DNA of 64,000 nucleotides. Origin: a virus. Shown here piece after piece: positions 7,154 to 56,689 of the stretch; within the stretch, counting starts at the first letter, position 1, and each line of letters opens with the position of its first letter. The stretch covers positions 38,595 to 102,594 of IMG/VR virus record IMGVR_UViG_3300004369_000643. One strand, given 5' to 3'. The notes below the pieces were generated by a model. That model saw nothing but the letters and a program-made list of their open reading frames with translations, was not told the DNA's origin and ran no database searches. The position numbers and the translations under genes were made by a program.

Positions 7154-7159
7154 ATCTGC

Positions 7160-7194
7160 TTGTCTCCTAGACAATTTCACGGTAAAGTATACCT
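7160..7194. promoter_or_regulatory. Overlapping divergent promoters between terL and the portal operon
   Basis: Plus strand: TTGTCT(7160)-17-TAAAGT(7183)-6-ATG(7195). Minus strand: TATACT at 7191-7186, 5 nt before GTG 7180. Confidence 0.55.
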
Positions 7195-7353
7195 ATGAAG
7201 AAATTTCTGTCCCGTTCTTTCGCTGCTCACGCTTGTATGGGCGCAGGCATCGTTTTTATCGGCCTTGGTATTAGTATACTAAGTTTGGGGTGGGGTTTGG
7301 CAAGTGCTGGTCTTGCTTGTGGAATGTACGGGTATTTATTAGGGGCTGAATAA
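7195..7353 (+). CDS. Small membrane protein preceding the portal (52 aa, not in ORF track)
   Basis: MKKFLSRSFAAHACMGAGIVFIGLGISILSLGWGLASAGLACGMYGYLLGAE; TAA overlaps the portal ATG; leaderless promoter. Confidence 0.75.
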   Translation: MKKFLSRSFAAHACMGAGIVFIGLGISILSLGWGLASAGLACGMYGYLLGAE

Positions 7354-8939: not shown

Positions 8940-9715
8940 ACGAGTCCGAGTGGAGAACTAAAACACTATACACTGTCAATTCTTTAGAAGAACAATTAAA
9001 CACCGCATTAGACAAAGTTTTTGATGAGCAAGAGCGTGTTGTTCTAGAAGAGTTGAATAGTGACGCCGTTAAAGCCGCTATTGCTAGCGGTTCGGTGCCC
9101 TTAATTATGTCCGCAATTCCCACGACTTTGCTGACTCCCACAACTGTTGGATTAGTTGCTGCTATGCTTGCTTCATATAACAAAGCAGTCACAGATAATG
9201 TTGAAGAGGGATATGGTGCTCCTGTTAGTCAGCAGACGGCAGATGCGGCGGCTTCGGAGCATTTAGCATCAGTAAATAATTTTAATTCAACAACCCAGCA
9301 GGAGGTTGCGTCTGCTTTGGTTGCTGCGTCGCAGTTGTCTGATGAAACTGATGGCGATATTGATATCGCTTTAAAAATTGCTTTGGCTTACTCGCTGATT
9401 AAGGCAGTTTTCAATAAACTCAGAACAAAGCGTAGAAAGTTGATTGTAGATGCTGCCGTACTTGGTACGTATAACCAAGGATTGTATGATTCTGCAACTG
9501 CCGAAGAGCAAAGATCAGGTAGAATTGTTCAGAAGCAGTGGATTTCTTTAATGGATGAGAGAGTTAGGTCTACTCATAGACAGTTACATGGGGATAAAGT
9601 TGCTGTCGGTACGCCTTTTATTGTTGATGGCGTGTCCATTAGATTCCCTAAAGACCCTTTGGCTCCTCCCGGTTTGACTATTAACTGCCGTTGCGTTTTA
9701 CGCTTCAGCAGGTAG
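8885..9715 (+). CDS. MuF (SPP1 gp7 / Phage_Mu_F)-like minor head domain, probably expressed as a portal fusion
   Basis: KQWISLMDERVRSTHRQLHG...PFIVDG..RFPKDP.APPGLTINCRC. The frame is open from 8885 with no ATG/GTG/TTG until a weak TTG at 9053. Confidence 0.85.
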   Translation, partial: EEPPFRTKTSIIGEPPLVDESEWRTKTLYTVNSLEEQLNTALDKVFDEQERVVLEELNSDAVKAAIASGSVPLIMSAIPTTLLTPTTVGLVAAMLASYNKAVTDNVEEGYGAPVSQQTADAAASEHLASVNNFNSTTQQEVASALVAASQLSDETDGDIDIALKIALAYSLIKAVFNKLRTKRRKLIVDAAVLGTYNQGLYDSATAEEQRSGRIVQKQWISLMDERVRSTHRQLHGDKVAVGTPFIVDGVSIRFPKDPLAPPGLTINCRCVLRFSR

Positions 9716-9806: not shown

Positions 9807-11372
9807 ATGACTGTTGCAGAACTAAATGACACCGAGCAAGATACCAGATTTAAGGCTATTTCAGGTCAGATTGGTATTGACAAGGCTCAGGGGATCGTAG
9901 AAGCGTTTGTTTCTGGTATTGGCAATAAAGATTCTGTCGGAGATATCGTTGTTGCTGGTGCCTTCAATGGTTCGCTCAAGCGTCGCAAACCACGAGTTGT
10001 TTGGGGGCACGACTGGAATCAACCCATTGGTAAAGTTATAGAGATTTATGAAGTCCCAAAGACTGATCCGAGATTGCCTGATAAGATGAAGCAGGCTGGT
10101 GTTGGCGGTTTGTTTGCAAAGGTTCAGTTCAATCTCAATACTGAGCGTGGACGTGAAGCATTTGCTAACGTAGCGTTTTACGGTAATGAGCAAGAGTGGT
10201 CAATCGGTTATAAGACCATTACTGCAGATTTTGATGCAGTTAAGCAGGCTAACGTTCTCAGAGAAGTAGAGTTGTATGAGATTTCTCCTGTCCTGCACGG
10301 AGCAAACCAGTTAACTGCAACTATCTCAGTAAAGGATGATGAAAAGGGCAAGGAGTCCAAAGGTTGGCAATCAGGTGACGACGACAAAGACGGGCCTGCC
10401 AGCAATATGGATGCGATGTCAGAGCGGCTGGGGCGTATGCTATCTCAGGCGCTAGGTAAGCCCGTTCAGATTATTCAAGCAGACGGAAATAATGTTGTAT
10501 TTCAAACAGGCGAAGACATGACATGGAGTGCTACCATTTCAGTAGAAAATGGGCAAGTTCAAGTCGGTCGGCCTACACGTGTAAAGCCCACTACAAGTTA
10601 TACCCCTGTTGGGGAGGAAGCGCCACCTTCAATGATGATTAAAGATACTGATGAAAAAAATGCCGAAGAGCCTGCTGGCGTTAGAAACGCTGACAACGAG
10701 CAAGGCTCGTGGGCAACTCCAGATATTGCTTTGGCTTGGTCAAAGACTCTGGGATGCTCAGGTTATCATTCCCACGGTGGAGGCTTTATGCCTTGTGAAA
10801 CCCACGAAGAATACTTAGAGGCTATTAAGAAGTTTGATGGTAATGCTAACATCAACTCCCACAATAATTACCTTGCTGGTGTTGAGGTTGAAGAAGCGAA
10901 AGACGCTGGATGTGGTTGCAGTACTTCCGAAAAGGGTCATGGCTACATGCGTAATGAAAAGCCTGAATATTTGAAAGATCCAATGGCGCTGCTGCTTATG
11001 GCCTATAACGAGATGCTTAAACTACGGGGTGCGGGCGAGTTGCGTGAGGCAACTCTCTCATTAATTGGTGCGGTTGAGAATTTTTTGACCGAAGCACCTA
11101 TGTCTCTTCCAAGTGAGCAGGGCGAGAAAGTAACCTCAGGTTTTGTTGTTCATGTTAAGTGTTCAGAACGTGAGGCTTTAAGTGTTAGTGGTGCTATGTC
11201 GTCACTTCCAGTATTCTCATTCAAGTCGGAAGATGGTGTTGATGTTCACTTCACTACCGAACTTGCGGAAGAAGAACTAATGGAAAAAGTTGCTATTTCG
11301 CTTGCCGGATTAGACTTTGATCCTGAGGTAACAGTAACCAGACCGATTGACACCGATGAAGGTGTTCAGTAA
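9807..11372 (+). CDS. HK97-type prohead protease (S78) with long C-terminal extension
   Basis: DSVGDIVVAGAF; WGHDW (His); WSIGY (Ser); LYEISPVLHGAN (Glu); SD GAGGAG. Confidence 0.92.
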   Translation: MTVAELNDTEQDTRFKAISGQIGIDKAQGIVEAFVSGIGNKDSVGDIVVAGAFNGSLKRRKPRVVWGHDWNQPIGKVIEIYEVPKTDPRLPDKMKQAGVGGLFAKVQFNLNTERGREAFANVAFYGNEQEWSIGYKTITADFDAVKQANVLREVELYEISPVLHGANQLTATISVKDDEKGKESKGWQSGDDDKDGPASNMDAMSERLGRMLSQALGKPVQIIQADGNNVVFQTGEDMTWSATISVENGQVQVGRPTRVKPTTSYTPVGEEAPPSMMIKDTDEKNAEEPAGVRNADNEQGSWATPDIALAWSKTLGCSGYHSHGGGFMPCETHEEYLEAIKKFDGNANINSHNNYLAGVEVEEAKDAGCGCSTSEKGHGYMRNEKPEYLKDPMALLLMAYNEMLKLRGAGELREATLSLIGAVENFLTEAPMSLPSEQGEKVTSGFVVHVKCSEREALSVSGAMSSLPVFSFKSEDGVDVHFTTELAEEELMEKVAISLAGLDFDPEVTVTRPIDTDEGVQ

Positions 11373-11402: not shown

Positions 11403-13205
11403 ATGAGTGATAACCTTAATGAAGACCTTCAGAAGATGGAAGCCCTGAGCGAAGTCATTGATTCTGGGGAAAGCATGTCTGCCGAAGAAAAGGGTATGCA
11501 TGATATGAAGAAGAATGCGCCATCAGTTTTTATGACTGATATTCGTTTCAAGGAGTCCATGGAGGCCGGTGATTTGCTTACCGAAGAAGCCTATATGTCT
11601 TTGGATGCGGATGATCAGAAGGGCTATGAAATGGTTCAAGTAATGGATGAAAAGACCAAAGAGCCTATGGGTTGGGTTTTCCGCTTTAAGTCTGATGAAG
11701 ATGATGGCGAAGAGGCTGTTGAAGAGGCTGTCGAAGAGGCTGTCGAAGAGGCTGTTGAAGAGAAGTCAGAGACTTCAGATATTTCTGAAAAAGCGGCTGC
11801 TCTCATGGCACAAATGCGTTCAACTGATGATGATAAACCATCAATGTTCTTAACTGATGCTCGGTTTAAGGAAATGATGGAAGACGGAGAACTAGTTTCC
11901 TCTGAAGATTATGACGGTCTTGATGAAGACGCTAAGGGTGCTTACGAGGCTGTTGAAGTTTACGAAGAGGGTACCGGCAAGGGTTATGGTATGCGTTACC
12001 GCCGCCGCAGTCCTCTTGAGTTGACTTCAATGCGTAAGGGTCAGCACATGGACGAGAAGGCTGATGACGGTATGGAAGACATGTTTGATTCAGAAGAAGA
12101 AGCACTTGAGCGTGCGGCTACTCTGGGTTGTGAAGGCGTTCATCGTGCCGGTGAGAAGTTTATGCCTTGTGCATCACACGATGATTGGATGAAGTTGAGC
12201 AAGCCTGCAGAAGAAGAAGCACCCGCTCCTGCTGCCCCTGCTGCTCCTTCTGCTCCTGCTGCTCCTGCAGACGCTGGCATGAAGTCAGAAGAAGAGTTCC
12301 TTTGTGGATTCCAGCGTAAGTCAGTTACGCAATCATGTGAATTTTGCTCAGGTGGTTGCGCACCGCAAGACGGTCTACCCGGATTGGCTGATATTGAGAA
12401 TCAAGTTAAGTCAGATTATGAGGGTTCTGAGATCATTAGTTCAGGATACTCTGCAGGTGACGACGTTTTCGTTGTAGACGTTAAGCGTGCTGATGGATCA
12501 TTCATTGAAGTGTTCTTGACCGGTGAAGGTGAAGAACTAGGATGGTTGCGTTTAGATGAGAGTGCAATTGAGGGCAAGTCCGCTGAAGCAATTGAAGTTG
12601 TTTCTAAGTCAGACGCTGAATTGACAGCATCAAAAGCCATTAGCGACATGGGAATTAAGGCTGAAGTCATGAGTGTTACCGTTGACATCTTCGCAGACGA
12701 AGATGTTTATGTTGTGGAACTTGATGCGGAAGAGAAGAGTTACGATGTGTTCATTTCAGCAGACGGCAAGGTTCTAGGCTACGATGAATATGAGTACGAC
12801 ACTCCTGCCTCATATGAACTTTCTGAAGAGGAAGAGATTAAGGCAATTGAAGCCGAACTAGAAATTAAGCGGATGTACTCTCGTGAACAGCGTGAGGCTA
12901 TGGCTGAATCTGGTGAGGCTCTTCCCGACGGATCATTCCCCATTGCGGACGAAGCCGACCTTAGTAATGCTATCCAAGCACTCGGACGTGCGTCTGATCC
13001 AGAAGCGGCTAAGGCACACATTATGAAGCGTGCTACAGAACTTAAGTTAGAGGATATGATCCCTTCAGATTGGAGCGATGGTGATTCACCTGCTCCAGCA
13101 TCTGCACCAAAAGAAACAGACGCAGAAGAGAAGGGTTTGGACGAAGATATCCTTAAAGCAATGGAAGAGTTCAATAGCCTTTTGGAAAGTGACGAACTTT
13201 CTTGA
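11403..13205 (+). CDS. Acidic modular head-associated (scaffold/internal) protein
   Basis: Internal ~58-aa duplication; GCxGxH..MPC motif; PepSY-like repeats; PDGSFPI...NAIQA module; lies between protease and capsid. Confidence 0.65.
   Translation: MSDNLNEDLQKMEALSEVIDSGESMSAEEKGMHDMKKNAPSVFMTDIRFKESMEAGDLLTEEAYMSLDADDQKGYEMVQVMDEKTKEPMGWVFRFKSDEDDGEEAVEEAVEEAVEEAVEEKSETSDISEKAAALMAQMRSTDDDKPSMFLTDARFKEMMEDGELVSSEDYDGLDEDAKGAYEAVEVYEEGTGKGYGMRYRRRSPLELTSMRKGQHMDEKADDGMEDMFDSEEEALERAATLGCEGVHRAGEKFMPCASHDDWMKLSKPAEEEAPAPAAPAAPSAPAAPADAGMKSEEEFLCGFQRKSVTQSCEFCSGGCAPQDGLPGLADIENQVKSDYEGSEIISSGYSAGDDVFVVDVKRADGSFIEVFLTGEGEELGWLRLDESAIEGKSAEAIEVVSKSDAELTASKAISDMGIKAEVMSVTVDIFADEDVYVVELDAEEKSYDVFISADGKVLGYDEYEYDTPASYELSEEEEIKAIEAELEIKRMYSREQREAMAESGEALPDGSFPIADEADLSNAIQALGRASDPEAAKAHIMKRATELKLEDMIPSDWSDGDSPAPASAPKETDAEEKGLDEDILKAMEEFNSLLESDELS
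11709..11762 (+). repeat. 12-bp coding tandem repeat (EEAV x4.5)
   Basis: GAAGAGGCTGTY x4 + GAAGAG. Confidence 0.9.
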
Positions 13206-13223
13206 TACTCTAGGAGGCATAAA

Positions 13224-13403
13224 ATGCAGCCTAGCCAAGTGATACAGAGAATTGCTGCCGCTAACCAAACTTTAGCAGAATTAGGAGCATATGCTGTTCT
13301 TGGTGACCACGTTAGAGATAACGAGGTAGAATATCTGTATAGAGACGGATTAGAGCATGTCTTTAGTCCCTTAGAAACCACTGGGGATTCGGATGACGAT
13401 TGA
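13224..13403 (+). CDS. Small hypothetical protein (59 aa, not in ORF track)
   Basis: SD AGGAGG; MQPSQVIQRIAAANQTLAELGAYAVLGDHVRDNEVEYLYRDGLEHVFSPLETTGDSDDD; fills the gap and overlaps the next start. Confidence 0.75.
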   Translation: MQPSQVIQRIAAANQTLAELGAYAVLGDHVRDNEVEYLYRDGLEHVFSPLETTGDSDDD

Positions 13404-16400
13404 GTTTAAAGCGCCCGAAATAGGTCCAAATGCCGATGCGCTGACCAGCCTTACACGAGGCCGAGGGCCACGTAGAGGCAACTTAGAAGACCTACTGAAG
13501 TATTGGCGTCCTATCATGAAGAAGCCGGGTGGATTCCGTAGGTGTGTTGTCATTTTAATGGATAAGCCCCAGTTTGGTGGAAAGCCTCAGCGCATTTGTG
13601 CTTGGCTTCACCACGAACTTACAGGTAAGTGGCCAAATGAAGGTAAGGGCAAGAAGGGTAGCCGCAGTCGTAAGAAGCGCCGTGGGCGTTCAGTTACTCG
13701 TAGGGTAAGGTCTGCGGGTAAGAAGTCTTTGATGGGTATGTCACCTTTGACTGAGGTTACTTCTTTGCGTATGGCTATTCGTGAGTCTCGTGAGTTTGGC
13801 GGAATTTTGGTTCAACCAATTGCGGGTAGGCAGAATGCTGTAGAAATGAAAGCGGCTATGTTCCTGCGCCACTCAGAATCTTTACCTTTGTTTGCTGGAA
13901 ATGACGTTAAGCGGGTTGGTACTGTTGGTTCTTCTAGTGGTTTGGGGCAGGCCGCTCAGGCTGCGGGTAGTATTATTCTTCCGGGTGATTTGTCTGACAT
14001 TCGTAGTCCTATCCGTTCGCAAATTTATGAAACTTTAACTCCGGGCGGTGGTGGAAGCATTCGCCGTCCTAGTGCTCGTCGCTTATTGAGAGGTACGGGT
14101 CGTGGTGCTCGTAATAAGTTTAGGTGTCCTCCGGGTTTTGAAAAGGGCGGAACTTTTACTAATTCTGAGTTCTCTACTTGTGGTGCGCAGATTTTAGGTA
14201 TTGCTAGTTCAGGCCCCGGTTCGCCCACAGCAGAGGCAAACAATAGGCTTTCACGTTTAGCGAACACTGCTGGCTTGGTTAATGAGATTGGTGATCTCCG
14301 TAAGAATACTAATGCTGTAGATATTATCCGTGCTGCTCAAATTCCTGCTGCCCCCAAGAAGGGTAGCCCAACTCGTGCCCAGACTTCAATTGACTTAGTT
14401 CTTTCTCGTTACACTGAAGAAGATTTCCCAACTAAAGTTGTTAGGCGAGACGGTGTTATTTTGGAGCCTGTTGTTTCGGTTGAAGCGCTTGGACGCTTAA
14501 ATGAGTTTGACGACATGGCAGATGGTAGCCTTATTGAAAAGTATGAAGCAGGTCAGATTGGTGCGGCAACTGTTCCTGCATTTAGTGCTGGATTGCGCAA
14601 TGTGTTTGTTTCCGTTCCAGATGCTGGTGCTGTTAAGATTAGTCGTGTAGGCGGAGAAATTTCAGATCAGGAACGGGCAGGCTTGTTACGTTCGTTTTCT
14701 GCGGGTATATCTAGAAGCGCTGATTTACCTGATCCTTCCGCTGCTGTCCGTTCGTGGGCTGACGGCTCTGACGGTAGATTTACTGTTGAGTTTGGTGCGA
14801 TTACAGATAACGGTTTTAGTGTTCAAGATGATAAGAATGAGTTGATCATGGTATCCACTGCTGGTGGCAAATCTCAAACTGTTCCTCGCTGGGTTTATGA
14901 AACTTTCCTGTCTCGTTCTGCACCTCGCCGTGCAAAGGATGCCCCTATTTTTGAAATTGTTTCTGACGAAAGTCCTCTAGAAAAAAGTGTTTCACCATTT
15001 TATTTCTCGAAAAAGTCAGTAACTCCTACTAGTGATTTAAGTGATGTTTTAGATGCGCAGGATTATTACTTATCAATTAATAGTAAAGTTAAAGCATTTT
15101 CTTATTTGACTGAAGTTGAAGTTAAGGCTCCTAGGCGTGGAGGTTTGGGTCGTCGTCTTGGTCGTGGTGGTCGGGCTGTTGGTGGGCGTAGTCGTGCAGT
15201 ATTCGACGGCGCTTCAGGTAGGTATCGTTGTCCTCCGGGCACCCGTTATGGTGGTCGATTCTCAGATCAGTTTGGACGTAATTGCGGCTACTCACTTCCA
15301 CGAGGTGTAGTTAATAATCTTGTTGATTTCGGTATGCGGGTTGAGGACGCAATGGAACGTCGGCGTACCCGCCGAGGCGTAGACACTACTCCGGGTGACG
15401 GTCGCACAAATCTTAAGCCAGAGACTGTTACGCTTTTTGATGATGCCATTGGTAGAGTAGAAGCCGCTACAGGAGATTTAAGTAGAGTCTTTGAGAAGAC
15501 AGAGGGCGCTCAAGGTGGTACATTAGGCCGCACTATTGGTGAGGCTCGGCGTGATGTTGATTTAACTCCTGAAGAGCGTGAGTTACTTGAAGGTGAGGCA
15601 TTGGCCGATGCGTTAGAGAATCTACGTGATGTTTTAAATAACGAGGATTTAAACAACGCCAATATCGATGAAATCCGTAAGGCGTATAAGGCTGTTGAGA
15701 AGGCTGCTAACATCGAAGCGGGTCGTCTGACTGATAATCCTCCACGCACACCAGATCAACGTACATTGTCTCAAAAGATTTTAGACTTCTTGAAAGAAGT
15801 TCTCTTCCGTCTGTTGGGTATATGGAATGAAGATGATGAGCGTCGGCGCATTGGCGGCGGTGTAGACACTCGTCCCGGTGATGGTGATGCTGATGTGCCG
15901 GGAAGTCGTCCTCGTGTTCCGGGTGGAGGACAGAGCCGTCCTCGTATTCCTGTAGATAATGATCAAGGTCGTCCTCGGATTCCTCTAGATAATGATCAAC
16001 GGCGTCCTCGTATTCCTTTAAGTTTGGATGATGCTGTTCGCAGTGATTCAGATGATCGGGATTCTTTAGAGGCGATTTTGAATGAGTTTCGTGATCGTGC
16101 TGAAGAATACGAGGTTGCTGGCGGTGGAATGACTGCTGATTTTGTTGAGTCATTAGACGACAAAGATTTGGATAGATATACTCAAGCATTTGAAGATGCT
16201 GCAAGACTGTTAGCGGATGATCCAGCATTTGATGATATTAACGACGCTTTAAATCGTCTGCGTGGTGAGCGAGATCGTCGGGACAGGCAACGCAGTCTAG
16301 TTAATGCCGATCTTCGTGAACGCTTTGATTTAGATAGCGAAGATGGTCTTGCTGACGCTATTGAACACTTTGAAGACCTTGCCGATGAGTATGAGGCAGC

Positions 16401-19400
16401 AGATATCATGACTGCTGACTTCTTTGAACGTTTGAACGACGATGAAATTGCGTTCTTCCAAGACGTGTTTGATAGGGCTATAGATAACATTGGGGACAAT
16501 GAAGACGGCGCATTTGATGCGATTGCTCGACGTTTAGAAGATGAACGCTCACGCCGTGATCAATTGAATAGAGAAGATTTCAGTAAGGAAGATTACAATT
16601 TAGTTCTTAAAGAAATGAATGCACATATGAAGCGGTTTGAGGTTGCTGGCGGTGGAATGACCGCTGACTTCTTTGATGCCGTTTCAGATGATGACCTGAT
16701 TAAGTATCGTCGTGCTGTTCGTGATGGTTTAGATGCTGATGCTTTTGATGGTGAAAATCGTGAAGCATTACAGGAACTCTTAGGGCGTATGGACGGAGAG
16801 TTTGATCGTCGCTTTAAAGGCCCCGGCAAGCGTCCTCGTATTGAGTCAGAAGAAAACAAAATTGAAGATAAGTTTACTTTAGATGGTGATGCCGATCTTG
16901 CTGCTGCTATTAAAGAGTGGGAAAGGCGTGCCGCCGACTTTGAAGTTACTGGTGGTGGAATGACTCAAGATTTAGTTGAGTCACTAAGTAATGAAGAACT
17001 TATTTTCTTTGAAGATGCTCACATCCGCTTAAAGGAGCGTATGGGAGAATTTGATTCTTTCGATCCCGCTGATTTAGATGAGATAATTAATCGCCTTCGT
17101 GGTGAGCGTGAGCGTCGTGGATTTAATTCATGGGGGCAAGGATCAGAGCCTGATCAGCGTTCGCTGATAAATGTCAATAACCGCTTCCCACGAAACGGTT
17201 TACCTAATCGTGCTTATTGGCGGGATGACAATTATGACGGTGATGATGCTGCTGAGTTAGATCGACGGTTTGGTCGTTACTATGATGGTAACAATATGCT
17301 GAATGATAGGGGTCGCTCTGTTAATCGCCGTTTGGGTCGTGATAGTGATTCTAATGCACCTGACGTTGCGCCTGATGGCGATAGTCCTGACGATCCAGAT
17401 AATCTTAGCAGGTTCTCTGATGATGAACTTAGAGCATTACTTGCTGATGATAATGCTGAATTACCTTTCAATATCCAACGCATTTCTGATGATGACTTAA
17501 GGCGTATAGAGCAAATTGGTGACGAGTTTGGCTCATCAGAAGAGATTACAGCAACAAACGGAATATTTAGGCGTCCATTAAATAATGTCCGAATTGTTGC
17601 GGAGGAAGTAAATAGGGGGCTGAATGGTGAGCGAGATCCGAACCGTTTAGGTGCAGGTACACCTGATGCGTCTCGGCCTGACATTCCTTCACCGCTTTCC
17701 GATAATAACTTTAATTCTGGCCGTAGGCTACGTCAGCCTATAAGAGCAATTGATGATGCCGATGATAATCAGTTAAATAACTTGCGTGGCGCTATGCAGC
17801 GTGAGTTTGCAAATTCGTATAACGAGTGGGTTGCTGAGTTAGGGATTGCAGGTGTCGCTTCGGAAGATGTATCGTTTACTAGGATTAAAGAATATATTGA
17901 CGGTATTCAAGATGTTGATAGGCGTCGTCTATTAGAGATGAGATTGGCTGACTTACGAGAGTTGAATGAGGGTGTACGTAAGTTAAATCAGGGTGATGAT
18001 ACTCGTGAAGTTCTTAGAGATCATTTAGGCAGGATATCGGTTGTTCGTAGAGCGAGCGTTATGAATTTGATTGACAACGACGATGCTAACGTTCCTAATG
18101 TTCCTGATGAACCATTTGTTGAATCTTTGATTCCTAGTGATAATCCTCTTGAGGGTAGAAGACGGGTACGGGATGCTGGATTAAAGTATGATCAAGAAGG
18201 TAATTCTTTCTTAGCGAACATGGATTTTAATGATCTTGGTCAACTATTTGATGATATAAAAGCGGCAGAGATCGATGGCGAGGTTTTAGCGCCTAGGTTC
18301 CGTGATACTGTTAGAGCGGAATATAACTTTAGGCTGAGAACAAATGACGGGGATTACGATGCTTTAGTTGCCCGTTTGGAAGGAATGTCTGACGAAAGCC
18401 TAGAAGAAATGGCTACTCGTGACATAGACTTTAGAGTTATTAGACTACGTGGGGGTAATGACAATGGTAGTCCTCCGAGCCGTGCAGCCTTGGCTCAAGC
18501 AGATAGATTAATTGAGGCCAAAGAGCGACGTGAGAGAAATCTGCGTGAAAGAATTCCTACAGGCACTATAGATGTTCCTGAAGATGGCAGCATCCGTGAT
18601 CGGGTTGGTGCAGTTTTGGGTGAGGGTGCTGTTGATATGGATGACAGAGCAGCAGAAGCCTTCTTACGCAGCCTGTCTTTTGAAGAATTTACACGTTTGT
18701 TGGAACGTAAAATGAATATGATGCCAGCATTTGATGATATAGACGACGAAGATTATATCGTTCTTTCTCAGATTGGGCAGCGTATAACTCGTGAAAAAGA
18801 TAGGCGAGAGCACGTTCGAAGGTTCCAGTTAGACGTACCAATAAGCCAGCGTTCAAACGAGGCTTTAGATAAGTATGAAACCTATTTTAATGAGTTGCTT
18901 GGTAGGCTTCCTGACGGTAACGCAAATTTTGAGCGGGTGCGAGACGAGATTCGTCGTGAGAAGCGAGCGAGAATTTTTGCACAGTCACCTAGCGTTATTG
19001 ATTTAGAAGATGAGGGTAGTTCATTAGTAGATGCGTTCGTACCTGATGCGCCGGGTTCTGGAGATATCGAAGACCTTGAGAAGTTCTTTGCTAATCGTGC
19101 GCTTCACGACGTTATGTCTACTCGTGATATGTTGAGAGTAAGAGATAGGATTCAGAATAGCCCTAATCTTACTCAAGATGAGTCTACGGCCTTGTTGCGT
19201 ACTTGGGATGATCGTATGCGTAACAGAGGTTTGAATTTTGAAAGAAATCTGCCTATAGATCAGCGGTCGGCTGATGCGCTACAACGGCATATAGACTTTT
19301 TGAATACACGAATGGAAATCCGTGATGCAGATGGTAACAGGGATATTGCGGTGGTGCAGGCATATGAAAATGCTATTTCTCTTTTAAGTAAACAGCGTGA

Positions 19401-21783
19401 TATTCGTATCGCTGCTGATGAGGTAGCGGCTGCTGTCGATGCTAATCCTAGTTTGTCTGATAGGTGGCGTAATGTCGCTAAATGGAATTTCTTGAAGGCT
19501 CGTCGTATGCGTCAGCAGAAACGTGAACAGAAAATTCGTGAGATTGCAGAAAGACGTTATGCTAATCGGCGTTCACCTTGGAATATAGGCGGATTAGATG
19601 GCTTAAGCAACATGTCTGATTCACAGGTTAGGGCACGGATTAGAGATACATATTTGGTTGGAAGTTCGACTGATACTGGTACGGTAACAATTAATGGTGA
19701 AGTTTTTACAAAGCGTATAACTCCAACTAACTCAAGGATCGAAGTTAATCGTTCGGCTAATGGTAGAATTTACAAAATAGATTTCAGCGCACATATGAAG
19801 TTTGAGTTAGTAGATTCTAACGGGAATGTAGTCAAGAGTGAGACTCACCGATCAGCAGAGGGTTGGACTAGAGGTAGAATAGAGAGAAGCATTACTTATG
19901 ATAGTAACGGTGTTGGCACTGTTGAACACAAGTTTTTAGGTCTTGATAGGGTCATGTCTTATAATGGGCAGGACGTTCCGTTTAAAGGCGGGGGATATAC
20001 TGACGAGTTGTTTAATAACAACTTGCTTTTCTACAGAAACATGGGTATAGAAAAGGTTAGCGTTTCTGCTGCTAGCGATGGTAACATTGTTTGGCCTCGT
20101 ATTGGATTTAGAGAATACGACGGGAACAAAATCAAACGACTTAACACTAAAATGCTTGTAGTTTTAGAAGACTATAGGGGTTATAAGAGGGCTAAAGAAA
20201 CAGGAGTTCCGCCAACAGCAGAGCAAATTGCGGCTAAAGCCCTCGTTCAAGATGACGTTAGGATGGCAAGATTAGATGCCATGTTGGAGCCACATAGGCT
20301 CAACCCGCAAGACGTTGATGCTCTGCCGGGGTACCACGATTTCTTATTGGCTCTTGACGGTGAAAATCGTAGAAACTCTGTAGCCTTCCAGTTACTTAGA
20401 GGAAGTAACCGAAATTTGCGCCTTGCTAAAGGCGGAGAAGGGATCTCTGGATTAGATGAGGGTATGCTTGATGAGTTGTTTGCAGATGATCCCGATTTGG
20501 AGAATAGAGAAATTGCTAATCCGTTTGGGGGTATGAACTTTAGTAGTGGTGTTTGGGATATTAGCGATATTTTGGGTGATGCTGGTGGTGATCCTCGTCG
20601 GGTTAACAGTAATTTAATTGATCCATATGATGGCCCTGTTGATTCTGCTGTAAGCGCCCCTCGTCAAACGGTTGGCCCACTTTCACAGAAGATGAATCCA
20701 GAAGTTGGTAGAGACGTTCAACGCCCAGTTAATGGTGTTCCTGTAGGAACAAACAATATTAGCAATTCAAATGATGCTGTAGATTATTTGAATGGTGGTG
20801 GAGATGTTTCTGGGGTTCCTGACGAATTTGTAAATCAGGCGATTATAGGTTTGTCTGATTTACTTTCTGACGCTAATCGTTTAGGCGATATAAGGTTTAG
20901 AAACATTAAACCTAGCGATGCTAACGGCATTAATGACGGTTTAGATTTTAATGGTGCACAAATTTTAGAAGACACAGTAACTGGTCAAGTTTTTGTAATC
21001 AAGTACAATCAGGGTCGGGGTTACGGTCATGATGAGGCTGCAAACGAACTTGTTGGTCGTGCCATCATGATTCGTATGGGCTTCGCTCAAGGCCAAGTCA
21101 GACTTGATGGGCCGGGCGATCCGAATGAAAGCCGACCTGCACGTGGTTTGGTTGGTGAAGCGTTGCATAACTATCTGCCTGAAGGAGTTAACCGTTCAGA
21201 TATAAGTATGGGTAATAGTGGGGCGGACATATATCTTAATGATGCTGCCGAGTTGGACGATATGACACACCTTATGCTGGGAGATGCTTTACTTTTCAAT
21301 ACCGATAGACATTCCAAAAACTGGCTGCAGTACACTGATCCGAATACTGGTAAAATTAGAATTGTACCAATTGACATGGGTCTAGGTTTACGAGGCAGAT
21401 CCGCAAATGGTGATGATTTAAGGGCTGAAGGGCTAGACGCTCCTAACCAAATTGCCAAGTGGGCATTGTCAGGCAAGGGCGGCAGTCATAGTCTTAATGG
21501 TGTTCAGAAAGCACTTAAGATGCTTGCTACAGATGCGGATAAAAGGCGAGAAATTGCAGCATCGTTTGATCGTGCAATAGCAAGAATGCGTGCTGCTCAC
21601 CAGCAAGAAGACATTACTGGTGTATTGGAGACCATTGGGCGTGAACATGGGAATTTGGATAGCGATGGGTGGAAGCGAGCGCAGGCCATGTTTTTAGAAA
21701 GATATGGATGGTTAATGGAATCATCTGTTAATGGGGATCAACTTGTCAGATTGATTATAGACGCAAGGCCACCGAGATCATAA
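13393..21783 (+). CDS. Giant (2796 aa) polyvalent head-associated protein with GNAT-like and C-terminal HipA/PI3-PI4-kinase-like domains
   Basis: Kinase motifs FVIKY..AANELVG, GDALLFNTDRHSKNWL, IVPIDMG; GNAT-like KGGGYTDELF...YRNMGIEKVSVSA..DGNIVWPRIGF; internal repeats. Confidence 0.75.
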   Translation: MTIEFKAPEIGPNADALTSLTRGRGPRRGNLEDLLKYWRPIMKKPGGFRRCVVILMDKPQFGGKPQRICAWLHHELTGKWPNEGKGKKGSRSRKKRRGRSVTRRVRSAGKKSLMGMSPLTEVTSLRMAIRESREFGGILVQPIAGRQNAVEMKAAMFLRHSESLPLFAGNDVKRVGTVGSSSGLGQAAQAAGSIILPGDLSDIRSPIRSQIYETLTPGGGGSIRRPSARRLLRGTGRGARNKFRCPPGFEKGGTFTNSEFSTCGAQILGIASSGPGSPTAEANNRLSRLANTAGLVNEIGDLRKNTNAVDIIRAAQIPAAPKKGSPTRAQTSIDLVLSRYTEEDFPTKVVRRDGVILEPVVSVEALGRLNEFDDMADGSLIEKYEAGQIGAATVPAFSAGLRNVFVSVPDAGAVKISRVGGEISDQERAGLLRSFSAGISRSADLPDPSAAVRSWADGSDGRFTVEFGAITDNGFSVQDDKNELIMVSTAGGKSQTVPRWVYETFLSRSAPRRAKDAPIFEIVSDESPLEKSVSPFYFSKKSVTPTSDLSDVLDAQDYYLSINSKVKAFSYLTEVEVKAPRRGGLGRRLGRGGRAVGGRSRAVFDGASGRYRCPPGTRYGGRFSDQFGRNCGYSLPRGVVNNLVDFGMRVEDAMERRRTRRGVDTTPGDGRTNLKPETVTLFDDAIGRVEAATGDLSRVFEKTEGAQGGTLGRTIGEARRDVDLTPEERELLEGEALADALENLRDVLNNEDLNNANIDEIRKAYKAVEKAANIEAGRLTDNPPRTPDQRTLSQKILDFLKEVLFRLLGIWNEDDERRRIGGGVDTRPGDGDADVPGSRPRVPGGGQSRPRIPVDNDQGRPRIPLDNDQRRPRIPLSLDDAVRSDSDDRDSLEAILNEFRDRAEEYEVAGGGMTADFVESLDDKDLDRYTQAFEDAARLLADDPAFDDINDALNRLRGERDRRDRQRSLVNADLRERFDLDSEDGLADAIEHFEDLADEYEAADIMTADFFERLNDDEIAFFQDVFDRAIDNIGDNEDGAFDAIARRLEDERSRRDQLNREDFSKEDYNLVLKEMNAHMKRFEVAGGGMTADFFDAVSDDDLIKYRRAVRDGLDADAFDGENREALQELLGRMDGEFDRRFKGPGKRPRIESEENKIEDKFTLDGDADLAAAIKEWERRAADFEVTGGGMTQDLVESLSNEELIFFEDAHIRLKERMGEFDSFDPADLDEIINRLRGERERRGFNSWGQGSEPDQRSLINVNNRFPRNGLPNRAYWRDDNYDGDDAAELDRRFGRYYDGNNMLNDRGRSVNRRLGRDSDSNAPDVAPDGDSPDDPDNLSRFSDDELRALLADDNAELPFNIQRISDDDLRRIEQIGDEFGSSEEITATNGIFRRPLNNVRIVAEEVNRGLNGERDPNRLGAGTPDASRPDIPSPLSDNNFNSGRRLRQPIRAIDDADDNQLNNLRGAMQREFANSYNEWVAELGIAGVASEDVSFTRIKEYIDGIQDVDRRRLLEMRLADLRELNEGVRKLNQGDDTREVLRDHLGRISVVRRASVMNLIDNDDANVPNVPDEPFVESLIPSDNPLEGRRRVRDAGLKYDQEGNSFLANMDFNDLGQLFDDIKAAEIDGEVLAPRFRDTVRAEYNFRLRTNDGDYDALVARLEGMSDESLEEMATRDIDFRVIRLRGGNDNGSPPSRAALAQADRLIEAKERRERNLRERIPTGTIDVPEDGSIRDRVGAVLGEGAVDMDDRAAEAFLRSLSFEEFTRLLERKMNMMPAFDDIDDEDYIVLSQIGQRITREKDRREHVRRFQLDVPISQRSNEALDKYETYFNELLGRLPDGNANFERVRDEIRREKRARIFAQSPSVIDLEDEGSSLVDAFVPDAPGSGDIEDLEKFFANRALHDVMSTRDMLRVRDRIQNSPNLTQDESTALLRTWDDRMRNRGLNFERNLPIDQRSADALQRHIDFLNTRMEIRDADGNRDIAVVQAYENAISLLSKQRDIRIAADEVAAAVDANPSLSDRWRNVAKWNFLKARRMRQQKREQKIREIAERRYANRRSPWNIGGLDGLSNMSDSQVRARIRDTYLVGSSTDTGTVTINGEVFTKRITPTNSRIEVNRSANGRIYKIDFSAHMKFELVDSNGNVVKSETHRSAEGWTRGRIERSITYDSNGVGTVEHKFLGLDRVMSYNGQDVPFKGGGYTDELFNNNLLFYRNMGIEKVSVSAASDGNIVWPRIGFREYDGNKIKRLNTKMLVVLEDYRGYKRAKETGVPPTAEQIAAKALVQDDVRMARLDAMLEPHRLNPQDVDALPGYHDFLLALDGENRRNSVAFQLLRGSNRNLRLAKGGEGISGLDEGMLDELFADDPDLENREIANPFGGMNFSSGVWDISDILGDAGGDPRRVNSNLIDPYDGPVDSAVSAPRQTVGPLSQKMNPEVGRDVQRPVNGVPVGTNNISNSNDAVDYLNGGGDVSGVPDEFVNQAIIGLSDLLSDANRLGDIRFRNIKPSDANGINDGLDFNGAQILEDTVTGQVFVIKYNQGRGYGHDEAANELVGRAIMIRMGFAQGQVRLDGPGDPNESRPARGLVGEALHNYLPEGVNRSDISMGNSGADIYLNDAAELDDMTHLMLGDALLFNTDRHSKNWLQYTDPNTGKIRIVPIDMGLGLRGRSANGDDLRAEGLDAPNQIAKWALSGKGGSHSLNGVQKALKMLATDADKRREIAASFDRAIARMRAAHQQEDITGVLETIGREHGNLDSDGWKRAQAMFLERYGWLMESSVNGDQLVRLIIDARPPRS

Positions 21784-21820: not shown

Positions 21821-22054
21821 ATGAAAAAATTTGAATTTTATGACATACAGGGAAAACTTGCAGGTATCGTTACTGAAAACGAAGATGGTTTAGTTGCTGA
21901 AAGTGCTGGTGACCCAGAGTTTAAAGAGTTTATTGAAGGGATGGCTGAGTTAGAGGAGGCCAAAACTGTACGTGAAGTAGTTAAGTCAGGTTTTTCGTAC
22001 ATGAGTATTGTGGAAGTACCAGTAACTGATGCGCCCACTGGAGAAGCATTATGA
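21821..22054 (+). CDS. Small acidic hypothetical protein (candidate immunity/antitoxin)
   Basis: 77 aa with its own promoter, immediately after the kinase domain; the role is inference. Confidence 0.6.
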   Translation: MKKFEFYDIQGKLAGIVTENEDGLVAESAGDPEFKEFIEGMAELEEAKTVREVVKSGFSYMSIVEVPVTDAPTGEAL

Positions 22055-22656
22055 AATATTACATTCTGACTAATAATGCTACCATGCTATTGAGGGTTGC
22101 TGCCCCTAACTCTGGAGAGTTCATTGTTAAGCGTGGCTATGAAAAAGATGCAGACGCCGTTAAACTAGAGTTAGATGTTAGGGCTACGAATAATCCTGAT
22201 GTTGATGTGTATGCGCCCACGATGATTAGGAAACGGTTCCCTAACACTATTGAGGTTGATTCAGCAAAGTTTGAAGATGCTATTAAAAAGGTAGAACAGT
22301 TTAATGCCGAGTACGACGATAATGTTGCTGAGTTAGAAGCCATGTCTCTAGAGGATTTAAAAACATATATTTCTACGGCTCCTGCACGAATGCCAAAGTT
22401 AATCAACTACGCTCAAATAAATAAGTTGTGGCAAGTTTTGTATTCGACTAGTGAGTCAGGCTTTATGTCTATTGAAGAGGGCGAACGTAACGATGATGAG
22501 GTTAAGGAAGATATTCATGCTTTGTACACCATTATTAAAGATGCAGAAATTACAAACGATAATACTATGATTAAGAATGTTTTAAAGTTGGGGGAGAATA
22601 TCACCCCGGAGGCTTTAGGTATTAGTTTTGTGGAGGAGCCAACTGATAATGGCTAA
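22051..22656 (+). CDS. Hypothetical protein (candidate immunity/accessory)
   Basis: 201 aa, coupled to the upstream ORF by ATGA overlap. Confidence 0.6.
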   Translation: MKYYILTNNATMLLRVAAPNSGEFIVKRGYEKDADAVKLELDVRATNNPDVDVYAPTMIRKRFPNTIEVDSAKFEDAIKKVEQFNAEYDDNVAELEAMSLEDLKTYISTAPARMPKLINYAQINKLWQVLYSTSESGFMSIEEGERNDDEVKEDIHALYTIIKDAEITNDNTMIKNVLKLGENITPEALGISFVEEPTDNG

Positions 22657-24163
22657 AGATCCACTTGCTGACCAGACTGTACCTACAAGAGAAATGGCTG
22701 AAAACCTTTCTAAAATTTTAGGTTGTTCGGGCGCTCACCGTGTTGGTGATGACGCTTGGGGGCCTTGCGAGTCTGCTGAAGATTTGCAGCAACTGATCAA
22801 GTTGGGTAATCCTGCATTCAGGGAGTGGAAAGAACAGCAAGGTAAGAAAAACGGCAGTAGGGAGATGCTTCGCTTGAAGGCGGCTAAAGGTAAAAGTGTT
22901 TTTTCTTCTAGGTCTGAAGCAGAGATGGCGGCTATCCGTTTAGGTTGTTCTGGCGCTCATCAAACTTCTCAGGGTAAGTGGGCACCTTGTGGTACACCTG
23001 AAGAGCATAATGCTGTTCATGGTAATGGTGCTAATGGTTCGGCTAGGGTTATCCGTGCTCAACGACCTGCCCGTAGAGTAGTGACCAATGAACGTCGATG
23101 GGAAAATCTCCGTGAACGTGGCCCTCGTGGTATTGAGACACTTCCCGGTGGCGGGCTAGTTTCAGGTAAGGCTGGTGTTTCAGATTCGTTCAAGCCCACT
23201 TCCGGTATGATTTCGGAAGCCAAAAAGGGTTTAGAGTGGCGTAAAGAGTTTGGGCGTGGCGGTACGATGGTAGGGGTTGCCCGTGCTAGAGATATCGCTA
23301 ATGGAAAGAATCTGCCTTACAGAACAGTTAAGAGAGTTAAAGCATTTTTTGATAGGCACCAGAGCGATTCTAAGGCTGAAGGCTACCGTCCGGGTGAAAA
23401 AGGTTTCCCTTCTAATGGTCGAATTGCTTGGGCATTGTGGGGCGGAGATGCTGGATACACTTGGGCGAAGTCAATTGTTCGCCGTGTAGAAGGCGGGGAA
23501 AAGGCTAATTTTGACACTATCGAAGAGAAACGTTTCTATACCGATAAACGTCGCCAAGAGTATGCCAAACGAGGTTGGGCATTACCTGACGGCTCTTACC
23601 CAATTAGAGATGTTGGTGATTTGCGGAATGCAATACAAGCCTATGGTTTAGGTAAAAATAGGGAAGCGGCCAAGCGCCATATCATGAAGCGTGCCCGTGC
23701 TCTAGGTAAGACTGATTTGATTCCAGATAACTGGAAGGTGCGTGGAAAGGCTGCTAGACGTTACGGCCCTAATGATCCTAAAACTCCTGCTAAGCCGTCA
23801 GAGCGGATAACCGGTTCAAGTAGAAATAAGCCGGGGTCTGCTTCAAATACTCGTGGTAAGATTGAGTTATCGGTGGCAGTAGAGAAGTCTCTAAAAGAGA
23901 AGGTCAAGGAACACAACGAGAAGATGGAGAAACGTAATAAAGATAGCCGTAAGGTTACTTTAGGTATGCTTAAGTCTGTTTGGCGTAGAGGTGCTGGTGC
24001 ATTCTCCCAGACGCATCGCCCCAAGATGACTAGACAGCAGTGGGCTATGGGTCGTGTCAATGCTTTCCTTAAGTTAACGTCTAGCGGAAAGCCATCAAAT
24101 CCTAAGTACACAACCGATAACGATTTGCTTCCTAAAGGTCATCCACGGTCTACCCGTAAGTAG
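22649..24163 (+). CDS. Basic modular head-associated protein (DUF3721-like x2, DUF6582-like, DUF5824-like modules)
   Basis: LGCSGAH...W.PC x2; GGTMVGVARARDI...IAWALWGG; ALPDGSYPI..NAIQAYG; VWRRGAGAF...QQWAMGRVNAF; SD GGAGGA before ATG 22649. Confidence 0.65.
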   Translation: MAKDPLADQTVPTREMAENLSKILGCSGAHRVGDDAWGPCESAEDLQQLIKLGNPAFREWKEQQGKKNGSREMLRLKAAKGKSVFSSRSEAEMAAIRLGCSGAHQTSQGKWAPCGTPEEHNAVHGNGANGSARVIRAQRPARRVVTNERRWENLRERGPRGIETLPGGGLVSGKAGVSDSFKPTSGMISEAKKGLEWRKEFGRGGTMVGVARARDIANGKNLPYRTVKRVKAFFDRHQSDSKAEGYRPGEKGFPSNGRIAWALWGGDAGYTWAKSIVRRVEGGEKANFDTIEEKRFYTDKRRQEYAKRGWALPDGSYPIRDVGDLRNAIQAYGLGKNREAAKRHIMKRARALGKTDLIPDNWKVRGKAARRYGPNDPKTPAKPSERITGSSRNKPGSASNTRGKIELSVAVEKSLKEKVKEHNEKMEKRNKDSRKVTLGMLKSVWRRGAGAFSQTHRPKMTRQQWAMGRVNAFLKLTSSGKPSNPKYTTDNDLLPKGHPRSTRK

Positions 24164-24351: not shown

Positions 24352-25638
24352 ATGAGTTTTGATGAAAGCCGACTCAACGAACTGAAGTCTGCTCTTACCG
24401 CTAAGATGGATGAGCAGAAGCAGATCGCTGATTCGATGCAATTTGAGGGCACAACCCTCATCGCTGATGACGAGAAGAAGTCAGCATTCCAGAATAACAT
24501 GACCCAAATTCGTGAGATTAAGGGTCTTATTGACGACATGAGCACACTTCGTGACGTGGCGGCTTGGTCTTCAGAGGCCGAATACAAGTCAGTTGCTGCC
24601 GAGGTTGCTGCTGGCGTTGAGGCAGAGGTTTCTCGCCACCGTTCAGTCGGTGACGCTTTCCTCGCTTCGGATGAGTTCAAGTCACTTCAGGGCGGCAAGG
24701 CTGGCGTAAACATGCCTTCACCGTTCATGGCGAAGTCACTTCAGCAGAAAGACCTTTACTCAGGTCTTCCTACTGGAACTCCTAGCGCCTTCGGTGCTAT
24801 TGAGCGTGACGGTATTGTTCCGATTGCTCAGCGCCGCAGCCGTGTACGTGACCTTTTCCCGGCACGTACCACTAACTCAGCAGTGGTTGAGTACTTCCGT
24901 CAGACCGGCTTCACAAACAACGCTTCAGTTGTTCCTGAGTACTCCTCAGGCAACTTTGGTGCGAAGCCTCAGTCAACAATGACTTTCGTGGGTGAGCAGG
25001 CTCCTGTTCGCACGATTGCTCACTGGGAAGCCGCTCACCGCAACGTTCTCGCTGACGAGCCGCAATTGCGTTCGATCATCGACAACGAACTGTTGTACGG
25101 TCTTCGTCTGACCGAGGATGCTCAGATTCTTTCAGGTGCTGGCACCGGCGAGGATCTCACTGGTATCCTTAACACTTCAGGCATTCAGACCTACTCATGG
25201 TCAGCAGGCGCAACTACGCCTGTTGCTGACACCAAGGCGGACGCTCTCCGTCGTGCGGCCACGTTGGCATACCTCGCCTACTACGAGCCGACCGGCATCA
25301 TCGTTCACCCTGCAGACTGGGAAGACATCGAACTCACCAAGAACTCACAGGGCACGTATCTTCTTGCCATGTCTGTTGCTGGTGGTGCAGAGTCACGTGT
25401 CTGGCGGATTCCCGTCATTGACACTCCTGCCATCACTGAGGGCGTTGCTCTCGTCGGTGCGTTCGGTACTGGCGCTCAGTTGTATGACCGTGAGGCTGCT
25501 TCAATCCGTATTTCGGAACAGCACTCAGACTTCTTCGTTCGCAACGCCATCGTGGTGCTTGCTGAAGAGCGTCTTGCCCTCGCAGTCAAGCGTCCAGAGG
25601 CGTTCGTGAAGGTCACCTTCGACGCCGCTCCTTCCTGA
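24352..25638 (+). CDS. Major capsid protein, HK97 fold with N-terminal delta domain
   Basis: AKPQSTMTF; TIAHW; LRSIIDNELLYGL; EDAQILSG.G; GILN; NAIVVLAEERLALAVKRPEAF; SD AAGGAG; strongly biased codon usage. Confidence 0.95.
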   Translation: MSFDESRLNELKSALTAKMDEQKQIADSMQFEGTTLIADDEKKSAFQNNMTQIREIKGLIDDMSTLRDVAAWSSEAEYKSVAAEVAAGVEAEVSRHRSVGDAFLASDEFKSLQGGKAGVNMPSPFMAKSLQQKDLYSGLPTGTPSAFGAIERDGIVPIAQRRSRVRDLFPARTTNSAVVEYFRQTGFTNNASVVPEYSSGNFGAKPQSTMTFVGEQAPVRTIAHWEAAHRNVLADEPQLRSIIDNELLYGLRLTEDAQILSGAGTGEDLTGILNTSGIQTYSWSAGATTPVADTKADALRRAATLAYLAYYEPTGIIVHPADWEDIELTKNSQGTYLLAMSVAGGAESRVWRIPVIDTPAITEGVALVGAFGTGAQLYDREAASIRISEQHSDFFVRNAIVVLAEERLALAVKRPEAFVKVTFDAAPS

Positions 25639-26491: not shown

Positions 26492-26610
26492 TGTCCTACA
26501 AGTTTTCTTAACTCTCACAACGACTTGACGATTTGGTGACGTTGCGAGCAGTTAGAATAGTAAAACCATCATTTTTAAAACACACGTTCACAACCATAGG
26601 AGGATATAAA

Positions 26611-36617: not shown

Positions 36618-36733
36618 TTACGTTGGCAGGCAGGTGCTGGGTGGTAATATAATACTTGACAGAGCAGACGCTACGTCTAGCCCTCAGGGCAAGTCAATAC
36701 GGTATTGAACGACAAAGAAATTGGAGGCTAAAA

Positions 36734-38252: not shown

Positions 38253-38702
38253 ATGGCTAAGGCAACCCAGAGGCAAATTGTTGCAGAGATTTCAGCGGTT
38301 AGAGATGTTCCCGGCCATATTCCGGGGCCTTCTTTCTCCACGTACTTTGCTACGGTTAGCGGCGGCGAAATCAGTGCCGCAGTAGAAAAGGTGTATGATG
38401 GCGGGGCTTCGTTCCCTGAGGTTCTTTGTGCTCCTTCAGAAATTGGTGACATCACGCTGAGCAGGTTCTATGATCCTGATGACGATGCTACTAGATTGAA
38501 TAACCTTCGTCAGTTGGTTGGTTCAACGTACTACGATGTCAAGATTTACACTCTTAACTGCGATCTTGCTGAGCCGGGTTCTGAGCGAATTTACCCAAGA
38601 TGCTTACTTGTAGGGCTTACAGAGCCTGATGGTGATGCTTCTTCAGGTGCTCCGGCTTCGTTCTCGCTCACTTTCTCAGTGAGCCGAGTCAGCGCTATCT
38701 GA
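38253..38702 (+). CDS. Tail tube protein
   Basis: Follows sheath; FATVSGG...DITLSR...DGDASSG. Confidence 0.82.
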   Translation: MAKATQRQIVAEISAVRDVPGHIPGPSFSTYFATVSGGEISAAVEKVYDGGASFPEVLCAPSEIGDITLSRFYDPDDDATRLNNLRQLVGSTYYDVKIYTLNCDLAEPGSERIYPRCLLVGLTEPDGDASSGAPASFSLTFSVSRVSAI

Positions 38703-56585: not shown

Positions 56586-56669
56586 GCCCCCGTGGCGGAA
56601 TAGGCATACGCAGGAGACTTAAAATCTCTGGCCCGTAAGGGCTTGTGGGTTCAAATCCCACCGGGGGTA
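56586..56669 (+). tRNA. trnL: tRNA-Leu, anticodon TAA (no encoded CCA)
   Basis: Acceptor GCCCCCG/CGGGGGT; anticodon arm GGAGA-CTTAAAA-TCTCT; long variable arm GCCC-GTAA-GGGC; T arm GTGGG-TTCAAAT-CCCAC; promoter TTGCGT-17-TATACT upstream. Confidence 0.95.
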
Positions 56670-56689
56670 CTGTTACTGAAAGGAGTATT

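Follow-up and report, generated by a model that had tools for sequence, protein, structure and literature searches.

A giant head-module protein with an atypical kinase at its rear as candidate capsid cargo of an aquatic, probably actinobacterial myovirus

What is a protein of 2796 amino acids (aa) doing among the head genes of a phage? The question is raised by IMG/VR virus record IMGVR_UViG_3300004369_000643, a 102.6-kb record estimated to be 69% complete, of which positions 38,595 to 102,594 were analysed; this stretch of 64,000 nucleotides (nt) is called the window below. A single open reading frame (ORF) with an ATG start runs through positions 13393-21783 of the window on the plus strand. 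As a first-pass annotation made from the letters had claimed, one frame is open throughout, and its product is referred to here as the giant. On our reading, to which we give an even chance, the giant is a capsid-loaded cargo polyprotein, possibly trimmed by a protease, whose kinase enters the host with the DNA. This reading draws on the position of the gene, on modules that the giant has in common with head-maturation proteins, on split genes in a sister lineage, on a variable rear part, on the kinase, on candidate Lys sites and on precedents. The phage is an aquatic myovirus and probably an actinophage.

The rear of the giant is an atypical kinase domain (aa about 2430-2796; 20680-21780, +) with the residues K2537, E2552, D2638-R-H-x-x-N2643 and D2661. 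The motifs on which a kinase had been proposed were all located, with VIKY at aa 2535, NE at aa 2551-2552, NTDRHSKN at aa 2636-2643 and PIDMG at aa 2659-2663. A HMMER search of aa 2001-2796 against 1.84 billion representative proteins returned 81 matches, most of which span only aa about 2445-2790. D2638, R2639, H2640, N2643, P2659 and D2661 are invariant in an alignment of 21 relatives, and K2537 and E2552 are at least 90% conserved both there and in a second alignment of 46 relatives, in which the kinase motif residues are again invariant or nearly so. Judged by these residues, the active site looks intact. The profile of the 21-member alignment retrieved CtkA from all PDB sequences (E 1e-5); two rear segments run with phmmer against PDB sequences gave no match. 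The PI3/PI4 kinase family PF00454 is touched by 18 of the 21 relatives (best E 4.8e-8), and the giant itself falls below the Pfam gathering score for it, at 14.7 bits against a cut-off of 27.1 (E 0.03). By sequence, the kinase is a remote relative of the PF00454 branch and no curated member of it.

Structure prediction, which had been suggested as a check, returned a kinase fold. The AlphaFold2 model of aa 2081-2796 has a mean predicted local distance difference test score (pLDDT) of 86.7, and its C-terminal part is predicted to be a bilobal kinase. Foldseek matched the model to PI4K type II alpha and CtkA with E of about 4e-4 and a probability of 1.0. The nearest structures are CotH (5jda), PI4K type II alpha (4pla, 4hnd), CtkA (3akj) and HipA (5k98); among the neighbouring folds are protein, lipid and sugar kinases. 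The giant's kinase is like these four in its Lys/Glu pair, its DxHxxN catalytic loop and its metal-binding Asp. It differs from them in sharing only 9-13% sequence identity, below Pfam thresholds, and in having two helical parts, an N-terminal extension (GG.L..VPD.FL) specific to the family and a C-terminal bundle. Together, the PDB profile match, the PF00454 contacts, the fold and the invariant motifs support the kinase reading well. Placement in the HipA family would call for a HipA_C or HipA_2 profile match together with a HipB-type antitoxin neighbour; this combination was not found, and the locus has no HipB-like partner.

Ahead of the kinase lies a region that had been described as GNAT-like (aa about 2019-2330; 19447-20382, +; core motif at nt 19984-20109). 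The motifs on which that description relied are present, with KGGGY at aa 2198, YRNMGIEKVSVSA at aa 2214 and DGNIVWPRIGF at aa 2229, and the run F-K-G-G-G-Y ... Y-R-x-x-G ... V-S-V-S-A ... D-G-x-x-V-W-P-R-I-G-F resembles GNAT motif A through strand 6. In motif A itself, of consensus Q/R-x-x-G-x-G/A, the final Gly/Ala is replaced in the giant (K-G-G-G-Y-T); two distant relatives, P0133 (Q-G-T-G-Y-G) and P0130 (K-G-S-G-V-G), carry the canonical form. The giant matches no Pfam GNAT model, and such models are touched weakly by 2 of 15 relatives; the best of these matches, to Acetyltransf_10 (E 8.5e-4, below the cut-off), belongs to one of the two relatives with the canonical motif. A profile of the family of this region found no solved GNAT among PDB sequences, and the ESM Atlas provided a lead only. 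The structure model began at aa 2081, and homology in this region starts near aa 2019. The GNAT-like domain and the kinase are paired in many relatives, with about 28% identity over aa 2020-2780. The GNAT reading is the weaker of the two.

If these enzymes are carried in the head, what would place them there? The candidate lies in the front part of the giant. Module A (aa 8-100; 13414-13692, +) is a small helical module with the Cys/His residues C51, C69, H73 and H74, behind which comes a Lys/Arg-rich tail. It holds the N-terminal Cys/His motif seen in the first-pass annotation, with FRRCV at aa 48-52 and ICAWLHHELTGKWP at aa 68-81, matches phrog_6439 (E 7.8e-6) and is modelled by AlphaFold2 as three helices (pLDDT 72-80). 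Counterparts with 45-79% identity lie downstream of the S78 domain in dozens of HK97-type prohead proteases from other phages, and one such protease (P0245) also has pentapeptide-repeat cargo. Module A occurs in Streptomyces phage Abt2graduatex2 as well, behind the MuF domain of a 1250-aa 'capsid maturation protease and MuF-like fusion protein'. The window's own S78 protease has no module A. Module B (aa about 170-530; 13900-14982, +) is an alpha/beta core that begins with RCPPG motif 1 (aa 244-264; nt 14122-14184); aa 245-525 are modelled by AlphaFold2 with pLDDT 80-94. Its homologues stand alone as proteins of 500-840 aa, some with DUF5872, and its BFVD matches include an uncharacterised phage protein (E 1e-17) and a protein named 'prohead protease' (E 2e-4). 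The ESM Atlas had no usable match for the aa 245-525 core. A comparison of the front-part model with PDB (Foldseek, VIA-wide) gave only generic helical-bundle matches, in a list dominated by the helical domain, with the aa 245-525 core effectively untested.

Module B is followed by a disordered linker (aa about 531-611; 14983-15225, +; pLDDT <50), a candidate processing region and fusion joint with conserved K531 before Ser and K578 before Ala. RCPPG motif 2 comes next (aa 612-632; 15226-15288, +; invariant C613, P614, P615, G616, G621, C631 and G632), so that both of the predicted RCPPG...CG modules were found, and a helical bundle (aa 637-820; 15301-15852, +) closes the conserved front part. 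Across 34 aligned relatives the Cys/His residues and both RCPPG residue sets are invariant, among more than 100 invariant columns overall. Of 71 kinase-bearing homologues without modules A and B, about 30 also have RCPxG...C close to their N-terminus. Elsewhere in the window, six-frame translation revealed one unrelated match within the large terminase (TerL) gene and no other. A short-motif search for homologues of the RCPPG region below 1537 aa gave only 4 matches, and a literature search for RCPPG found no phage paper. Modules A and B and RCPxG lie outside every Pfam model and named PHROG of the copies consulted, and the whole giant matches nothing in Pfam or PHROGs above threshold. Against 50,697 GenBank phages (tblastn) the giant had no match, and its front part a 40-residue motif match only.

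How the parts came to stand in one chain is shown by a sister lineage, whose major capsid protein (MCP) is 61-66% identical to that of the window and whose equivalent slot holds the giant's parts as separate genes. In one such locus (L101) the order is protease with module A (677 aa), scaffold-like protein, RCPxG-kinase (489 aa), a 126-aa ORF, a module B protein with RCPxG (735 aa), a second RCPxG-kinase (984 aa), an RCPxG protein (872 aa), a p511-like protein and the capsid protein. Three loci of this lineage (L101, L099 and L093) were read from end to end, and each large protein that they encode between the scaffold-like and p511-like genes has exactly one RCPxG. The low-confidence stretches of the giant at aa 85-126 and 525-600 coincide with gene boundaries of the sister lineage. 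By this arrangement, the giant is a fusion of neighbouring genes. A natural split form is seen in one clade, in L029-L037 and L043 (about 14755-17400), where the giant stops at about 1610 aa and the kinase is on an ORF of 857-1010 aa that starts within 5 nt. A difference in reading frame separates the front module from a 3532-aa ORF in L039 and L052, for which a split gene, a frameshift or a sequencing error are possible.

The position of the gene is the same wherever it can be followed. The first-pass annotation placed the giant between protease and capsid, which is right, although it adjoins neither. The order in the window is TerL (5837-7180, -), portal (7353-8939), MuF as a separate 220-aa gene (9053-9715), the S78 prohead protease (9807-11372, +), the acidic, scaffold-like 600-aa protein p600 (11403-13205), the giant, a small acidic ORF of 77 aa (p77; 21821-22054, +), the 201-aa ORF p201 (22051-22656), the basic 511-aa protein p511 (22628-24163) and the HK97-type MCP (24352-25638, +). 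Among the related IMG/VR loci, 80 were fetched for gene-order reading, and this order, with a small ORF after the giant, is kept in 80 of 80 as far as each reaches. A front-part relative is encoded on 450 IMG/VR stretches from marine and freshwater or lake samples, and the front 810 aa recur with 45-80% identity in hundreds of IMG/VR giants, without exception in this slot. The domain family is abundant, yet unannotated in Pfam and PHROGs.

Within this fixed slot the front is conserved and the rear is not, which supports a polymorphic, head-associated character; a comparison of C-termini among relatives had been suggested as a check for polymorphism. Amino acids 1-810 are common to 61 full-length proteins of 1.5-4.8 kaa, at 39-81% identity (most 45-62%), and the remainder differs. 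Identity to the closest relative (L003) is 82-96% in the flanking genes and 82% in the front module, against 44-50% for the rear 2000 aa. When the rear 350 aa of 41 complete related giants and of the window's own were classified, at least 8 classes were found, on rear parts of about 500 to 3000 aa. Those recognised by Pfam are NUDIX; sigma-70 region 4/ECF/HTH/PolyA_pol; pentapeptide repeats with Fic; and PI3/PI4 kinase, and several classes are without Pfam recognition. The domains that Pfam names are of kinds typical of early takeover or of conflict. Mapped on a front-module tree, the classes mostly keep to their own clades, with 8 changes where the minimum is 7, and the candidate of a rapidly swapped toxin tip was rejected on that ground. 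The kinase is on deep branches of both main clades, and 28 of the 41 related loci have one in the head slot. It is therefore the commonest and probably the ancestral cargo of the slot, with occasional replacement.

Front and rear are joined by a middle region whose long Arg/Asp-rich character, predicted earlier, is borne out by composition: the giant has 11.1% Arg, 10.3% Asp and 3.3% Lys, and the other window proteins 5.2% Arg and 4.4% Lys. Four tandem acidic repeats of 80-105 aa (EVAGGGMTADF ... NRLRGER) occupy aa 881-1262 (16033-17178, +). They are followed by a conserved module of about 70-80 aa at aa 1250-1330 (NRFPRNGLPNRAYWRDDNYDG...; 17140-17382, +), which recurs in other cargo proteins; its copies in L085-L103 and L063/L064/L067 are 46-69% identical (39% over one longer match), and distant loci often have two. 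The Arg/Asp-rich, Lys-poor linker proper, delimited by composition in 100-aa windows, covers 17383-19446 (+) and is 44-47% identical to the closest relatives, against 82-96% for flanking genes. Lys depletion as a rule for the whole family was rejected, as the NUDIX class is Lys-rich.

Could the head protease act on such a chain? HK97 cuts its own capsid protein after a Lys. In the window, the motif E-x-K-[ASGT] is enriched relative to shuffled sequence in the delta domain of the capsid protein (aa 1-115; 5 observed, 0.29 expected), in p600 (6 observed, 1.78 expected) and in aa 1-600 of the giant (4 observed, 0.62 expected). The sites (E/D)-x-K153 before Ala, K531 before Ser and phi-K578 before Ala are conserved within otherwise variable disordered linkers, K531 being invariant and K578 at least 90% conserved in the 34 aligned relatives. 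Cleavage at K578 would yield a fragment of 2218 aa, beginning 33 residues ahead of RCPPG motif 2, that resembles the stand-alone RCPxG proteins.

The mechanism that we propose is as follows. The front 810 aa, with module A, module B and two RCPxG...C motifs, would load the giant into the procapsid, where the S78 prohead protease probably trims the disordered linkers at the conserved Lys sites. The long Arg/Asp-rich spacer would bear the enzymatic rear, made up of a GNAT-like domain and a catalytically intact kinase from the PI3/4K-CotH-CtkA-HipA group. Expelled with the DNA, this rear part would be at work in a newly infected cell ahead of all phage gene expression. We infer encapsidation, proteolytic processing, ejection and substrate alike. 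Several points weigh against the proposal. The lineage is without an isolate, a virion proteome or a structure, and without a GenBank phage match. Capsid binding by modules A, B and RCPxG is putative; searches with their folds gave no informative solved match. The assignment to GNAT is weak. To get through a myovirus tail, a protein of 310 kDa has to unfold. E-x-K-[ASGT] was picked after viewing the same sequences, so that its p-values are not independent and the motif is a lead only; in aa 601-2796 of the giant it is found 0 times against 1.08 expected, an absence that is not significant. Finally, clade-specific cargo with 8 changes means that swapping is rare, which makes the arms-race picture weaker than for classical polymorphic toxins.

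Precedents exist, and the concept of a packaged, injected effector is itself established; it is the front modules that have no annotation in the Pfam, PHROGs or GenBank phages used. Polyvalent proteins (PMC5512222) are, like the giant, very long phage proteins whose single chain combines several conflict-type domains. Their genes lie among virion genes, they are predicted to be packaged and injected, and kinase and GNAT are among their listed classes. With a kinase and a GNAT-like domain in a myovirus head module, the giant shows the combination of two or more conflict-type domains and virion-gene context that defines them. It differs in that polyvalent kinases are a distinct Ser/Thr/Tyr-kinase clade without a C-lobe whereas the giant's is a complete PI3/4K-CotH-CtkA-like domain, and in that the hallmark modules (MuF, DdrB-ParB, ART, methylase, helicase) are absent from its chain. 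MuF toxins (PMC5576092) likewise combine a conserved head-associated front, a variable enzymatic rear and a small ORF directly downstream, an ORF that the giant has too. Their front part is unrelated to that of the giant, which has no match to the N-terminal MuF domain PF04233 (MuF being a separate gene here), and the text of PMC5576092 mentions no kinase. T4 Alt and internal proteins, the N4 virion RNA polymerase and the SPN3US ejection proteins are enzymes or giants stored in the head, some of them trimmed by the prohead protease, that leave it with the DNA for host takeover; the SPN3US head holds a bolus of ejection proteins (PMC7411985, PMC5694885). To these the giant has no relation in sequence or fold; its targeting signal and enzymes are different, and its encapsidation is inferred.

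The main rival, which is a special case of delivery and which we consider unlikely, is that the giant is a phage polymorphic toxin with cognate immunity, in which the kinase, with the GNAT-like domain, would reach the infected or a competing cell and arrest its growth, and p77 would neutralise it in the producing cell, as has been proposed for MuF toxins. The 77-aa ORF directly 3' of the giant is a candidate partner, whether as immunity protein, chaperone or inhibitor. The start of an ORF lies no more than 62 nt from the stop of the giant in every complete locus, and 33 of 42 such ORFs encode 53-246 aa; the layout is similar to that of MuF toxin genes, where a small ORF is next in 89% of cases (PMC5576092). 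Small-ORF sequence families track the rear-domain classes, a p77 relative stands alongside the kinase in the distant locus L046, and p201 is syntenic in all classes, so that the variable unit is rear domain plus small ORF. HipA and CtkA, moreover, are among the structural neighbours of the kinase. Yet the co-variation of small ORF and kinase is not separable from shared descent (4 independent pairs, p 0.5, no power), the small ORFs of kinase loci L019, L024 and L073 are unrelated, and a HipB-like partner is missing. A kinase that is near-universal and probably ancestral in the slot is what one would expect of a core function in infection more than of a toxin that diversifies, and MuF toxins are reported from temperate phages only (PMC5576092), a lifestyle that the giant's phage need not share.

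The remaining explanations dispense with delivery. The enzymes might do their work in the cell that makes the phage, or within the head as it assembles, where they could, for instance, phosphorylate or acylate host factors or those of scaffold and capsid at a late stage of infection; co-transcription of the giant with late head genes, and a module A in common with a protease that works inside the prohead, agree with this, as does the indirect nature of the case for ejection. We nonetheless hold it quite unlikely, as the rear domains of relatives (sigma region 4, HTH, polyA-polymerase-like, NUDIX, Fic, pentapeptide) have no obvious role in head assembly and fit host nucleic-acid or protein machinery, and as studied head-packaged phage proteins are ejected (PMC5512222, PMC7411985). 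That the giant is mainly structural, an internal core, inner body, DNA-organising protein or scaffold with vestigial enzyme-like domains, would suit its very large size, its long repetitive charged region, the basic tail after module A and the adjoining acidic p600. The invariance of the kinase catalytic residues across distant relatives makes this improbable to our mind, and an exchangeable rear that ranges so widely in length is hard to square with a dimension-setting structure. An external capsid decoration or fibre, for which the head-module position alone could be cited, is scarcely credible: a Pfam search of the giant found no Ig-like, collagen or other decoration domain, the rear domains are enzymatic, and the front modules are shared with an internal protease.

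The phage that carries this locus can be described from the rest of the record. A tail sheath gene at 36656 and a tube gene at 38253 identify it as a myovirus. The host is likely actinobacterial, as pointed to by, among others, a WhiB-family gene (PF02467, E 1.8e-14, above the cut-off) on the record upstream of the window (G000:C1:33566-33742). By capsid protein, the nearest isolates are Gordonia and Brevibacterium phages, at 40-48% identity; these also rank high by terminase, for which two methanogen phages have slightly higher identity; module A is present in Streptomyces phages. A scan of genome contigs for a prophage or host returned only metagenome bins of mixed phyla. In the cultured actinophage ScarletRaider of Gordonia (L084, record 13093-21626), an RNA ligase and a VIP2-like ADP-ribosyltransferase toxin lie between portal and protease, along with two hypothetical proteins of about 950-980 aa; an adjacent third protein of about 950 aa is annotated as minor tail protein. 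This interval is an analogous but unrelated 'effector zone' in the head module.

Other features of the window lie farther from the giant. A gene for a class II (B12-dependent) ribonucleotide reductase (26533-28566, +) follows the capsid genes within the structural region and is syntenic in relatives. Directly upstream of the tail sheath gene, 33153-36248 (+) encodes a protein of 1031 aa, rich in Arg and poor in Lys, that has a ParB C-terminal domain (phrog_2579, E 7.6e-37); a 119-aa ORF comes next. ParB-type domains being a hallmark of polyvalent proteins, the 1031-aa protein may be a second virion-carried effector. The Pfam Cys/His micro-domain DUF3721 (LGC.G.H...C) is found in the C-terminal part of the protease, in p600 and twice in p511 (10740-10805, 12084-12179, 22901-22993 and nearby). 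The last two proteins have a second common module, ALPDGS(F/Y)PI ... L.NAIQA.G ... AAK.HI.KRA, at about 12870-13010 and 23600-23740. A tRNA-Leu (anticodon TAA) is at 56586-56670 (+). A scan for promoters and terminators found fewer sites than in shuffled sequence.

Phage proteins that are carried in the head and injected into the cell are known for only a handful of model phages, and the fusion and split forms described here amount to a parts list: a candidate loading signal, candidate cleavage sites and cargo. The widest version of our proposal is an undescribed capsid-loading and delivery system of aquatic actinophage-like myoviruses, with a RCPxG...C mark of about 20 residues and a Cys/His module, trimming by the protease between x-K and a small residue, and a near-universal PI4K/CotH-like kinase cargo injected with the DNA; as a whole it is tentative and doubtful. 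In that version the kinase might even have host lipids for its substrate instead of proteins, actinobacteria being among the few bacteria that have phosphatidylinositol lipids. Should RCPxG and module A be loading signals, head cargo would become predictable from sequence alone in uncultured phages, and the enzymes of early host takeover would gain a new class if an atypical kinase is injected.

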